From assembly GCA_022574205.1 (NCBI GenBank), contig JACZSL010000002.1, positions 11,965-75,964 on the forward strand: a DNA stretch of 64,000 bases. Direction: 5' to 3'. The translations under genes and the position numbers were made by a program. Every line of letters starts with the position of its first letter. Positions within the stretch are counted from its first letter, which is position 1. The notes beneath the pieces were generated by a model. That model was given only the letters and a program-made list of their open reading frames with translations, did no database searches and was not told the DNA's origin. This document shows, in pieces, positions 53,707-64,000 of the stretch. Source of the stretch: Patescibacteria group bacterium (GTDB lineage: Bacteria > Patescibacteriota > Minisyncoccia > Phycocordibacterales > JACZSL01).

Positions 53707-54966
53707 CTATTTACCTAAGCGCAGGCTCCAAAGAGAGGAGTCTCTTTTGTTTATGAAAAAGAGGTATTCTCCAGACTCACTTACAGCAAGATTAACCATA
53801 TCAATAGTGAAATCTCTCTCTTGCCTAAGGTCAACGAGCAGGCGTGTAACATCTCTCGACACATCAATTTCCCAAATACTGTCGGAGAAAGAAATTTTTC
53901 CCTGATACCAACTATCAGGGTATAAGTCCTCTGAAACCACGAATGGCACACCACAGTAGACAATATTCCTATTAACGGGGCTCCACCCACACTTTTCTGG
54001 GAGTGTTTTAACAGAGAATAAACGCATATCGCGCGTTTTTAGTTCGAATAAGAAAAGACCAAAATCACCACTAGTGCTTTTAGACAATAGAATACGGTCT
54101 CCATACGGGCTTGTGTTTACTGTTAATCCCAAAATACCATCCAGGAGCTTTTCTGGAACAGCACCACCCCCCTCCTCAAGAGAGTATACTAAGCCAGCTA
54201 CTAGACCAGAAGCTTTTGTGGTAAAGAAGATTTTTCCACTATTTGTTATCTCGTAGAGGAGTTCGTGGAGGAATGAACGATATACCGTTTCCACACCAGA
54301 GCCGTTGAAAGAAGATTTTTTAAGCAAAGTCTCGCGATCTCCACGAATAGTATAGAAAATATTTTCACCAACATCATCAGTTGTGAAGAAATCTATGTCA
54401 TCCGGAAGAAAACGTCCATCGATCGTAGAGACAGACGTGCCACTAACAATGTGAGCATTAAACGTCTTTATAACATCGTTTTCATCCAGATAACGAAGTA
54501 CAACCCGTGTAGCATTTTTATTCCAAATCGCCTCATAAACACCTGGAATTGTGGTGTTTGTAACGCGTACAGACTCAATTTTTTCCGGATCAACTTGGTA
54601 TATATTCCCTGTTATACGCTCAACGAAGCGCACAGACGGAGCTCCGTCGCTTGTTGTTGTGGCAACAAATCCAGCCACAGGTGTTGTTGTTAGTTGCTGT
54701 AGCACACTTTCTCCAAACTGACGCCTTTTTAACACAAGATTATCATCAAAACCAAAACCAACAAACCCACCCTCATTTTCAAATGTGAGTGGTGGGCGCT
54801 CTTCGTCTAAACCAAGTACAGAATCATCAGAAAAGAGACCACCAAAAAAACCAACATTTTCTTGACTATCGCCAGATGACCCCCCACCATCCCTTTGTAT
54901 TAGAAAAAACCAACCCAAAATTCCAAGGATCAATGTGATAATAAATATAATTAGTATTTTTTTCAT
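53707..54966 (-). CDS. hypothetical membrane-anchored extracellular protein (first listed gene of the T4SS-like cluster region)
   Basis: Start moved to MKKILIIFIITLIL (TM anchor); Gly/Ser-rich linker; beta-rich body. Confidence 0.4.
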   Translation of the reverse strand: MKKILIIFIITLILGILGWFFLIQRDGGGSSGDSQENVGFFGGLFSDDSVLGLDEERPPLTFENEGGFVGFGFDDNLVLKRRQFGESVLQQLTTTPVAGFVATTTSDGAPSVRFVERITGNIYQVDPEKIESVRVTNTTIPGVYEAIWNKNATRVVLRYLDENDVIKTFNAHIVSGTSVSTIDGRFLPDDIDFFTTDDVGENIFYTIRGDRETLLKKSSFNGSGVETVYRSFLHELLYEITNSGKIFFTTKASGLVAGLVYSLEEGGGAVPEKLLDGILGLTVNTSPYGDRILLSKSTSGDFGLFLFELKTRDMRLFSVKTLPEKCGWSPVNRNIVYCGVPFVVSEDLYPDSWYQGKISFSDSIWEIDVSRDVTRLLVDLRQERDFTIDMVNLAVSESGEYLFFINKRDSSLWSLRLGK

Positions 54967-55007
54967 GATGTAAATAAATACAGAATGTACATATAATACA
55001 ATGAAAC

Positions 55008-55919
55008 TTAGCCGCCAGCACCAGGACGATAGCACGGGGTGGCCGACACAAACAACGGTCTCGAGGACGCGTCTCTCCGTGCTTGTTCACAAAGCAGAGA
55101 ATCGTTAACAGGTACGGGACACTGCTGTTGTGTTAGACGTCTGTCGTCAGACCCCACCGACGTAGTGATATCATAACAAAATTCCCTACCTATTCCTCTA
55201 GAGCCGTCGGCTGTCGAGAAGCACCCTTCTTCTATACCATAAGAGATAAAAACTTGTCTTGGACGGGCCTTATACTCTTCTTCCCCAGCAAGGCATTGTT
55301 CCAAGGTAGTCCATATGGTTTCTTCACCAGAAAAAAATCCAAAACTACCACATTCTATATCAGCAAATCCACCAGCATCGTCGCCAACAAAACAAAAACC
55401 TTGATCTATTATTACTCTGTTGGCATATCCTGTCAGCGCCGCGGCTTCCTCAGCACGACTACGATCATCAAGTTCTATTCCAGAAACTACACCACCAACC
55501 TTGTCTTGAAGTGTGCCAAAAAAGTCGAAACTAAGAATCTTTGGGTTAATTGTTTGCAGAACCAGAACGGAAAGAAGAACAATTAGGAGTCCCCCAAACA
55601 CACCAGTCATACATTTTTTCGCCGCCTCTTTTGAGCTTATTGCTTCGCTCATCATATACTGAAAACCACAAATCATTAACTTGATTACTGCAAGAACTGC
55701 AATTATAGAAATGAAAAGAACAAAAATATTGTTAAAATATTGCACCAATCCGGAAGGACCCCCAGTATTCACAGAACTCCCAACACCAGGAAGCGGGGAA
55801 ATAGGCGTATACGATTGCGCAAACACAGTGTCTACAAACAACAACATTAGAATACAACACAACGCAAACGTTAATATGTAAGTGGTTTGTGCGGACTTGA
55901 ATTTACTTGGAAAAAACAT
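55008..55919 (-). CDS. VirB2/TrbC-like pilin candidate with a ~170-aa Cys-rich C-terminal domain
   Basis: Signal peptide (…VFA|QS), two hydrophobic helices separated by a short charged loop (LVQYFNNIFVLFISIIAVLAVIKLMICG / MTGVFGGLLIVLLSVLVL), then a domain with ≥9 Cys. Confidence 0.35.
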   Translation of the reverse strand: MFFPSKFKSAQTTYILTFALCCILMLLFVDTVFAQSYTPISPLPGVGSSVNTGGPSGLVQYFNNIFVLFISIIAVLAVIKLMICGFQYMMSEAISSKEAAKKCMTGVFGGLLIVLLSVLVLQTINPKILSFDFFGTLQDKVGGVVSGIELDDRSRAEEAAALTGYANRVIIDQGFCFVGDDAGGFADIECGSFGFFSGEETIWTTLEQCLAGEEEYKARPRQVFISYGIEEGCFSTADGSRGIGREFCYDITTSVGSDDRRLTQQQCPVPVNDSLLCEQARRDASSRPLFVSATPCYRPGAGG

Positions 55920-63656: not shown

Positions 63657-63695
63657 TATGTTGTATTCAAGCCGGAAAAATTATCTGCTCTAAAA

Positions 63696-64000
63696 CTAAC
63701 GGAATGGCGGCGGTGGGAATCCCGGCGGCGGTGGGAATCCCGGCGGCGGCGGTGGTAATCTCGGCGGTGGCGGCGGTGGCGGTGGTGGCGGCGGTGGCGG
63801 TGGTGGTGGCGGCGGCGGAAGAAATCCCGGCGGCGGCGGCGGCGGCGGCGGCGGCGGCGGCGGCGGCGGAGGCGGCGGTGACCCCCCCGGGTCTGGGTCT
63901 AGAGACGGTATCAGATTCAAAGGATCTCCACCCAAGAGATTGCTTAAAGCCCCTACAAGATCAGCTCTTTCAAGATATCTCCTCGAACCAAAACCCTCTT
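63696..64000 (-). CDS. C-terminal end (5'-partial in the window) of a protein ending in a ~60-residue polyproline tract
   Basis: The minus-strand frame is open to the window edge: ...ERADLVGALSNLLGGDPLNLIPSLDPDPGGS(P)17GFL(P)24RL(P)5GF(P)4GF(P)4FR*. Confidence 0.55.
   Translation of the reverse strand, partial: EGFGSRRYLERADLVGALSNLLGGDPLNLIPSLDPDPGGSPPPPPPPPPPPPPPPPPGFLPPPPPPPPPPPPPPPPPPPRLPPPPPGFPPPPGFPPPPFR
63711..63890. repeat. (GGC/GGT)n trinucleotide simple-sequence repeat (~180 bp, near 90% GC) encoding the polyproline tract
   Basis: ggcggcggtgg... runs including (ggc)13; strong GC contrast with the AT-rich surroundings. Confidence 0.9.

Follow-up and report, generated by a model that had tools for sequence, protein, structure and literature searches.

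Probable Paceibacteria copy of the relaxase-less Patescibacteria type IV secretion system near the replication origin, with conserved unannotated partner genes

A stretch of 64,000 nucleotides from a Patescibacteria group bacterium (assembly GCA_022574205.1, contig JACZSL010000002.1, positions 11,965 to 75,964), referred to below as the window, was analyzed for a gene cluster resembling those that encode type IV secretion systems (T4SSs). The cluster lies on the minus strand, from position 53707 to position 64000, and consists of 11 co-oriented and tightly packed open reading frames (ORFs), the first of which is truncated by the window end. Adjacent genes overlap or are separated by gaps of 1 to 41 nt, with the exception of a 249-nt AT-rich spacer located between the gene for a 220-amino-acid (aa) protein and virB4. 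A first-pass annotation, made from the sequence alone, had placed these ORFs at the coordinates found here but had counted ten genes while listing eleven; the membrane topologies that it proposed were reproduced by a hydropathy scan. The features are listed below in the direction of transcription, with the basis of each assignment in parentheses.

63696 to 64000, minus strand: proline-tailed protein, partial, running past the window end (translation)
61755 to 63656, minus strand: VirB6-like polytopic protein, 633 aa (transmembrane [TM] scan, position, and a minority of orthologues)
61182 to 61745, minus strand: soluble acidic paralogue of the next protein, 187 aa (pairwise comparison and family alignment)
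60744 to 61169, minus strand: soluble acidic protein with a DPYRE tail, 141 aa (family search)
60297 to 60731, minus strand: PrgI/VirB3-like hairpin protein, 144 aa (Pfam PrgI)
59651 to 60313, minus strand: TrsD-like protein, 220 aa (NCBIfam and family profile)
59402 to 59650, no strand: AT-rich spacer, 27% GC, containing a pair of repeats resembling miniature inverted-repeat transposable elements (MITEs) (sequence)
57557 to 59401, minus strand: VirB4 ATPase, 614 aa (NCBIfam conju_CD1110 and Pfam)
56977 to 57555, minus strand: small basic membrane protein, 192 aa (hydropathy and position)
55919 to 56965, minus strand: anchored protein with three domains resembling immunoglobulin (Ig) or fibronectin type III (FnIII) domains, 348 aa (AlphaFold2 [AF2] and Foldseek)
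55008 to 55919, minus strand: VirB2-like pilin, 303 aa (Pfam matches of orthologues)
53707 to 54966, minus strand: anchored seven-bladed beta-propeller protein, 419 aa, counted from the ATG codon supported by orthologues (AF2 and Foldseek)

The 614-aa protein matched the NCBIfam equivalog model conju_CD1110 with a score of 378.8 bits for a cut-off of 325, so that the original VirB4 assignment passes a curated threshold. Further matches were obtained with the Pfam families P-loop_TraG (1e-24), AAA_10, and DUF87, and both Walker motifs are intact, Walker A as AKSGSGKS in the translation and Walker B as LLVIDE. The match to CD1110 spans positions 185 to 733 only of the 752 positions of the model, and the protein corresponds to a canonical VirB4 deprived of its N-terminal third. 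The 220-aa protein, which the first-pass annotation had left as an unidentified soluble protein, matched positions 2 to 136 of the same CD1110 model (E = 3e-6), positions 101 to 238 of VirB4_plasma, the model for Mycoplasma VirB4 (E = 5e-11), and the TrsD/TraD model NF041427 (28.9 bits; E = 9e-7), for which the curated cut-off of 200 was not reached. The protein is thus a homologue of TrsD/TraD by fold region and position, without being a member of that family at the NCBI threshold. A profile built from 41 orthologues of the 220-aa protein aligned to residues 22 to 188 of a 797-aa plasmid VirB4, i.e., to exactly the portion that is absent from the 614-aa protein, whereas a search of the PDB with the family profile returned no match. 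Since the 220-aa protein matches the VirB4 N terminus left uncovered by the 614-aa protein, VirB4 is split in the manner of TrsD systems into a free-standing TrsD-like N-terminal domain and a 614-aa ATPase.

Searches with VirB4 yielded more than 8,000 relatives in the database and 579 matching loci in contigs representing one genome per species. Eighty of these loci, chosen as the best VirB4 matches, were kept with flanks of ±10 kb. Among the matches listed, the best VirB4 relatives displayed 75 to 96% identity with lengths of ~600 to 700 aa, and the named ones all originated from Patescibacteria, Paceibacteria, Parcubacteria, Kaiserbacteria, and similar lineages represented by metagenome-assembled genomes, in agreement with the ultrasmall-bacterium origin that had been proposed for the locus. 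The best plasmid VirB4s, from Firmicutes and Actinobacteria, were 28 to 36% identical. The VirB4 of the window shared 74 to 82% identity with those of the 80 related loci, across orders, and the TrsD-like protein displayed a median identity of 60%. These data bear on the possibility that the locus is a decaying, nonfunctional remnant, in which the split of VirB4 and the 249-nt spacer would be signs of pseudogenization. VirB4 is indeed encoded by two genes with a repeat element between them, but the split is shared by all of the relatives, and the pseudogene reading was rejected on that ground; they have the two-gene arrangement, with listed VirB4 homologues of ~600 to 700 aa and a TrsD-like gene in 78 of the 80 loci. 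According to a survey of Patescibacteria genomes (PMC12102498), the split also occurs in systems of the pGO1 type. With intact ORFs, preserved Walker motifs, and the high VirB4 identity across orders, decay of the locus is barely credible.

The spacer itself (59402 to 59650) consists of a tandem pair of ~105-nt MITE-like elements that have terminal inverted repeats (5' CCGATAT(G)AAATTAAA ... TTAATTTATAACGG 3'), and it contains promoter-like hexamers. No conserved RNA structure was detected in the spacer (consensus of -1 kcal/mol) and no Rfam family in the region. In most relatives, the trsD-virB4 junction is reduced to 1 to 20 nt, with ~100 nt in the close relative L082. The MITE-like element is present in four copies in the window: the two copies of the spacer, one at 31783 to 31896 (plus strand), directly upstream of a Mur-ligase ORF at 31902, and one at 25455 to 25560 (minus strand). 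In the Paceibacteria loci L005, L023, L040, L063, and L002, the same junction is occupied by an insert of 440 to 500 bp with an ORF of ~125 aa. The three insert ORFs that were scanned, those of L005, L023, and L002, matched PF05635, the family of 23S rRNA-intervening-sequence proteins (E = 2e-19 to 4e-40), and the inserts of L005 and L040 are flanked by inverted repeats of 27 to 33 bp. Insertions seem to have recurred at the junction between trsD and virB4.

The 144-aa protein, a TM hairpin by hydropathy, was matched by the Pfam PrgI family (PF12666) with a score of 44.1 bits, above the cut-off of 27, which upheld its earlier assignment as a PrgI/VirB3-like protein. The 633-aa protein contains ~7 TM segments followed by a hydrophilic tail and appears to be VirB6-like, of the "extended VirB6" type; this is the weakest identification in the cluster. 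The tail, which had been described as K/E-rich and 200 aa long, is K/E-rich but extends over ~230 aa according to the hydropathy scan. As to the VirB6/TrbL call itself, topology and position fit it, but the window protein failed the hidden Markov model thresholds, with no match in Pfam, NCBIfam, or the PDB. The VirB6-PrgI-x-VirB4 order, which is that of pCDC3875 and pCF10, fits a VirB6-like protein at this position. Among 41 orthologues of the 633-aa protein, TrbL matched two (6e-5), the CD3337/EF1877 mobilome membrane family matched six (1e-6), and Mbov_0396 matched two. Comparison of the VirB6-like family by hhalign gave an E value of 0.0025 and a probability of 12% with PrgH of pCF10 and nothing with CD1112, and the matches of the family profile in the PDB were confined to the low-complexity tail.

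The 303-aa protein comprises a signal sequence, two TM segments (hydropathy scan), and 12 Cys residues, and its score against the Pfam family T4SS_pilin was 22.9 bits for a cut-off of 26.6. Membership in this family is carried by the orthologues, as 32 of the 36 aligned sequences matched T4SS_pilin (best E value, 2.4e-10) and 6 matched TrbC/VirB2, in support of the initial call of a VirB2-like pilin. In the alignment, the YxPLxPLPG motif is conserved, as is a core of two helices that terminates in TINP; a hypervariable extension follows, which in the window pilin is a lineage-specific Cys-rich region of ~175 aa. The pilin family profile did not match any of the T4SS proteins of pCF10 and pCDC3875, and comparison with PrgH, PrgF, and CD1112 yielded no equivalent of the VirB6-like protein or of the pilin. 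The detection of T4SS_pilin orthology and of a TrsD-like N domain contradicts the claim that VirB4, VirB6, and PrgI were the only recognizable components. The hypervariable C-terminal extensions of the pilin orthologues range from 0 to ~400 aa, and those of individual orthologues contain a YkuD (L,D-transpeptidase), SLT, 3D, or He_PIG domain.

Gene order, which the first-pass annotation had proposed to compare, was found to be conserved. The consensus of the related loci is VirB6-like, DPYRE family, PrgI, TrsD-like, VirB4, small TM protein, Ig-like, pilin, propeller, jag, yidC, rnpA, and dnaA. VirB4 is present in all 80 loci, the TrsD-like protein in 78, PrgI in 77, the Ig-like protein in 76, the propeller in 69, yidC in 62, the VirB6-like protein in 61, the pilin in 60, and dnaA in 55. 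The order of the cluster and its association with jag, yidC, rnpA, and dnaA are common to most of the loci, which belong to different candidate orders, and the recurrence of the same order in 80 related loci places the co-occurrence of these genes far beyond chance. In the window, a distance of 2.2 kb separates dnaA from the end of the cluster, and the same neighborhood is found in at least 55 of the loci. The relatives encode, upstream of the VirB6-like gene, a variable large protein, a protein of ~320 aa with bacterial thrombospondin type 3 (TSP3) repeats, KsgA, and a UvrD/PcrA helicase. No record identical to the 633-aa protein was retrieved, and the contig of the closest relative, L082, ends within the cluster.

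This conservation has to be weighed against the possibility that the cluster is the transfer module of an integrative and conjugative element (ICE) or of a plasmid remnant, with a relaxase, a type IV coupling protein (T4CP), and oriT located just beyond the window. The affiliation of VirB4 to the CD1110 family, which NCBI defined on conjugative elements, the VirB6-PrgI-x-VirB4 order of Firmicutes plasmids, and the fact that the window terminates inside the cluster are all compatible with such an element. However, the cluster of the relatives occupies one and the same chromosomal place in dozens of species, with ksgA/uvrD as one boundary and jag/yidC/rnpA/dnaA as the other. A domain scan detected no relaxase or T4CP in the cluster or among the 20 longest other ORFs of the window, nor were the T4SS-DNA_transf and TraG-D_C domains or an integrase found in the scanned ORFs. 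Likewise, tblastn with the VirD4 protein CD1115 gave no match in the window or in the 80 loci with their ±10-kb flanks, which agrees with the earlier statement that VirD4 and a relaxase are missing from the vicinity. The cluster presents no compositional anomaly, its GC content being similar to that of the rest of the window, the housekeeping content of which includes genes for arginyl-tRNA synthetase, serine hydroxymethyltransferase (SHMT), thymidylate synthase, FolD, PolA, RuvB, tyrosyl-tRNA synthetase, PBP1, DnaN, and DnaA. Finally, in the loci containing both genes, which were selected on VirB4, the median identity was 77% for VirB4 and 58% for DnaA, VirB4 being the more conserved in 55 of 55 cases, the opposite of what is expected for a mobile element. 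An ICE is therefore highly improbable: the conserved order, the fixed site, the lack of an adjacent T4CP or relaxase, and the constraint on VirB4 identify the cluster as a strongly constrained chromosomal system that is inherited vertically. Together with the absence of VirB7-, VirB8-, VirB9-, or VirB10-like matches among the cluster proteins (Pfam and NCBIfam), these results uphold the description of the locus as a T4SS-like cluster of the monoderm type. The locus is very probably an intact Paceibacteria copy of the relaxase-less T4SS of Patescibacteria, located near the replication origin.

The cluster encodes several additional proteins, two of which, of 348 and 419 aa, have one N-terminal membrane anchor each according to the hydropathy scan. 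The AF2 model of the 348-aa protein (mean predicted local distance difference test [pLDDT] score, 92.3; predicted template modeling [pTM] score, 0.79) consists of a TM helix and three tandem Ig/FnIII-like beta-sandwiches, and Foldseek retrieved tandem Ig/FnIII proteins with this model. A natural fusion of the triple Ig-like protein with a T4SS_pilin domain was found in two database relatives (P0282 and P0302), which indicates that the triple Ig-like protein is functionally tied to the pilin. The AF2 model of the 419-aa protein (pLDDT, 88; pTM, 0.80) comprises a TM helix, a disordered linker of ~50 aa, and a seven-bladed beta-propeller, for which Foldseek retrieved generic propellers, with TolB matched weakly. 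A Cys pair and a D..WYxG motif are invariant in the propeller family, and a peptidoglycan-binding domain is appended in a few relatives. VirB8 was also considered as an identity for the 348-aa protein and was ruled out on the model, which predicts three Ig-like sandwiches and not an NTF2-like fold.

The 192-aa basic protein has three TM segments (hydropathy scan), and its membership in a fast-evolving positional family located after virB4 in ~40% of the loci, as obtained by iterative search on a small set, is suggestive only. The visible part of the proline-tailed protein ends with a run of more than 60 proline residues and had no Pfam match. In the relatives, this position is occupied by a nonconserved protein, mostly of 300 to 870 aa (139 to 1,165 aa overall). 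As the relatives carry this variable gene and a TSP3-repeat gene, followed by ksgA, the cluster is expected to extend one or two genes past the window, and the TSP3-repeat gene probably belongs to it, just outside the window. In the interval between ksgA and the variable gene, the ~320-aa protein is encoded at L003:2642-3592, L009:2268-3269, and L053:3183-4169; for a Pfam cut-off of 25, the TSP3 repeats of L003 (36.1 bits) and L053 (37.5 bits) passed and those of L009 (17.6 bits) failed. Profiles of the Ig-like, propeller, DPYRE, and small-TM families detected no equivalent among all of the T4SS proteins of pCDC3875 and pCF10, for which the sole match was that of the TrsD-like profile to the VirB4 N terminus.

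The two soluble acidic proteins located between the VirB6-like protein and PrgI are weak paralogues, with 25% identity over 91 aa (pairwise E value, 3e-5), so that their earlier description as tandem paralogues can be retained. The 141-aa protein consists of an N-terminal domain of ~110 aa, a variable linker, and the C-terminal sequence DPYREPI-COOH. The 187-aa protein has kept the conserved ~110-aa N-terminal domain and lacks the C-terminal DPYRE motif. The family is large: a search of the full library, clustered at 50% identity, returned no fewer than 756 clusters. Among the best 150 family clusters, 131 contained DPY[RHKQ]x, which was located exactly three residues from the end in 108. Practically all of the loci examined have members of the family in the interval from the VirB6-like gene to PrgI, in a single, tandem, or internally duplicated arrangement. 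Conversely, a search of the 1,386 ORFs of the 80 loci placed the carriers of the motif at the VirB6-like/PrgI position in all but one case, the lone exception being a carrier for which the search pattern extended 25 residues back. No relative was found in Pfam, NCBIfam, or the PDB, including by profile-versus-PDB search, and a literature search for the DPYRE motif returned nothing relevant. A folded domain joined through a variable linker to a C-terminal peptide that is invariant has the signature of a docking tail. The DPYRE protein would serve for docking or as an adaptor, or else be a substrate, binding to the VirB4/TrsD/VirB6 platform by its tail, and it may act as a stand-in for the absent coupling protein.

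Several other features of the window concern the region of the origin and the physiology of the organism. Cumulative GC skew, computed between 26000 and 64000, displays a peak, not a trough, at dnaN/dnaA (~50 kb). With oriC placed between dnaA and rnpA, transcription of the entire T4SS operon would run in the direction of the origin and be head-on to replication; its orientation relative to dnaA is the same in the related loci. The window contains type IV pilus (T4P) genes encoding PilM (26641 to 27768, minus strand; PF11104; 5e-32) and a PilB-like T2SSE ATPase (40710 to 42461, plus strand; 6e-119), indicating that the organism has both T4P and T4SS genes near the origin region. An ORF with a LAGLIDADG_3 homing endonuclease domain (35208 to 36029, minus strand; E = 1e-10) directly adjoins the 3' end of a tRNA-Lys gene (36030 to 36103, minus strand). 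Genes for thymidylate synthase, dCMP deaminase, FolD, and SHMT are clustered between 8272 and 12000, indicating that some capacity for nucleotide interconversion has been kept in this reduced genome.

The first-pass annotation had presented the locus as a candidate novel apparatus. The same system has been published (PMC12102498, PMC10633639, and PMC12857230), the T4SS of Patescibacteria having been described between 2023 and 2025, and the locus adds no new class of system. In particular, Quiñonero-Coronel et al. (2025, Microb Genom 11:001409; PMC12102498), in their survey of 3,035 Patescibacteria genomes, describe a monophyletic Patescibacteria VirB4 clade nested in the mating-pair-formation class MPF-FATA. 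The most common partner of VirB4 in that survey is TrsD, with PrgI/VirB3, VirB6, and VirB2-like pilins coming next; hardly any relaxases were found, and a T4CP is rarely adjacent to virB4. The cluster of Paceibacteria is reported near dnaA, dnaN, rnpA, rpmH, and ksgA. Since that description includes these components as well as the lack of a relaxase and the proximity of dnaA, the locus is not a novel apparatus. What the present analysis adds are accessory features, namely, the Ig-like and propeller genes, the DPYRE family, the variable pilins, and the MITE pair of the spacer. A review (FEMS, 2025; PMC12857230) treats the T4SS of Patescibacteria as a branch newly added to the T4SS superfamily and as the only T4SS reported to be essential for its own carrier bacterium. 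The transposon sequencing study of Wang et al. (2023, Cell; PMC10633639) reports that Southlakia epibionticum requires the genes of the T4SS and its pilins for epibiotic growth.

These data can be combined in the following model. The T4SS of Patescibacteria probably derives from the conjugation machinery of monoderm bacteria (MPF-FATA/CD1110 type) and was subsequently repurposed. A VirB4 hexamer with a free N domain would dock on a platform formed in the membrane by PrgI/VirB3 and the VirB6-like protein and would power the extraction of pilins and their polymerization, giving a tube or pilus. Envelope-spanning or host-binding parts may be supplied by the two anchored proteins (Ig-like and propeller), the proline-tailed and TSP3 proteins, and the pilin extension; more specifically, the anchored Ig-like and beta-propeller proteins would form the extracellular base or the tip of the pilus, and the variable, sometimes enzymatic C-terminal domains of the pilins would serve host-specific wall penetration. 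The machine would mediate contact-dependent exchange with the host cell; the lack of a relaxase and of an adjacent coupling protein implies that it does not conjugate. That the unannotated conserved genes jointly encode true, lineage-specific subunits of the T4SS of Paceibacteria is put forward tentatively.

As to the direction of transport, we lean somewhat toward a pilus-forming conduit serving mainly for the uptake of host macromolecules (nucleic acids), in preference to effector export. A T4SS dedicated to the injection of effector proteins into the host bacterium is an option offered by Wang et al. (PMC10633639), because the coupling protein and the relaxase are missing, and the Ptl and Brucella VirB systems do function without a T4CP (PMC12102498). 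The pilin and the surface proteins face outward, and some relatives have cell-wall enzyme domains (YkuD, SLT, and 3D) fused to their pilin, as would suit injection. Nonetheless, Pfam and NCBIfam recognized no candidate effector or immunity gene in the cluster, candidate phyla radiation (CPR) cells lack nucleotide and amino acid synthesis and depend on import, and a cultivated relative is reported in a 2026 preprint to acquire host RNA and to form tubular structures, possibly T4SS pili, at the host interface (bioRxiv 10.64898/2026.06.21.733656). Export of effectors is for these reasons rather unlikely. Import has also been proposed, for DNA or other macromolecules, by Quiñonero-Coronel et al. 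(PMC12102498), and VirB4 produced weak NCBIfam matches to CedB (37.8 bits) and CedD, as might be expected for a competence-type DNA importer similar to Helicobacter ComB or crenarchaeal Ced. The CedB score is however far below the cut-off of 700, VirB7 to VirB10 parts of the ComB type are absent, and comEC-dependent competence of Southlakia is separate from the T4SS and nonessential, in contrast to the T4SS, which is essential (PMC12102498 and PMC12857230). A dedicated DNA importer is thus distinctly unlikely, which leaves uptake of host macromolecules through a pilus as the reading that we favor.

Several points weigh against the assignment of the locus and the proposed role. The VirB6 assignment of the window protein is below every curated threshold and relies on position, topology, and weak matches of a few orthologues, and the window pilin falls 3.7 bits short of the Pfam cut-off. 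The affiliation of VirB4 is based on identity values rather than on a tree, and the choice of the 80 loci as the best VirB4 matches inflates the identity of VirB4 relative to that of neighboring genes. The search for a T4CP in this genome covered the 64-kb window, and a T4CP could still lie elsewhere, as T4CP homologues are distant from virB4 in many Patescibacteria (PMC12102498). Transport direction and substrate, formation of a pilus, and the roles of the accessory proteins are drawn from T4SS biology and from the cited papers, the experimental data of which come from another class only, the Saccharimonadia.

Patescibacteria represent a large share of bacterial diversity, and their host-dependent lifestyle is poorly understood. 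In this context, the locus provides a clean Paceibacteria example of the system together with conserved unannotated partners, i.e., the DPYRE-tail, Ig-like, and propeller proteins and the pilin with its variable extension. These partners, the DPYRE-tail family foremost, offer a modest upside.

Four groups of known systems come closest to the locus. The ICEs of Mycoplasma encode a trio formed by the pilin-like protein Mbov_0395, the TM protein Mbov_0396, and the VirB4 protein Mbov_0397, to which the cluster gave weak matches (pilin, E = 0.007; VirB4, 249 bits; TrsD-like protein, E = 5e-11; and two VirB6-like orthologues). Both are wall-less or monoderm systems with a pilin-like protein, but all scores were below the curated cut-offs and the Mycoplasma systems are mobile ICEs. 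The MPF-FATA systems of Firmicutes (CD1110/CTn2, pCF10, and pCDC3875) share with the window the CD1110 match above the cut-off, the VirB6-PrgI-(x)-VirB4 order, and a monoderm architecture devoid of VirB7, VirB9, and VirB10. They differ by a full-length VirB4 of ~800 aa, with 28 to 36% identity to the window VirB4, and by the possession of a VirD4 T4CP, a relaxase, a VirB1-type hydrolase, and the VirB8-like protein PrgL. The pGO1/pSK41/pIP501 subclass (TrsC-TrsD-TrsE or TraC-TraD-TraE) has, like the window, a separate gene for a TrsD-like N domain between the VirB3-like gene and virB4. This presumed likeness in gene order follows in part the 2025 survey, and the subclass differs in consisting of plasmid conjugation systems equipped with a T4CP and a relaxase.

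The T4SS of the Patescibacteria clade shares with the window VirB4, TrsD, PrgI/VirB3, a putative VirB6-like protein, and a VirB2-like pilin, as well as the lack of a relaxase and of an adjacent T4CP, a chromosomal location next to dnaA, rnpA, and ksgA, and a CPR host. The window cluster has no gene for a VirB1-like hydrolase, unlike the systems described in that clade, and its triple Ig-like, beta-propeller, and DPYRE-tail proteins are not named in the available text of PMC12102498 or PMC10633639. In Southlakia epibionticum (SEML1_0006-0019), the pilins are encoded by a six-gene array, whereas the window, which has the Paceibacteria arrangement, contains a single pilin gene, the product of which carries a C-terminal extension.

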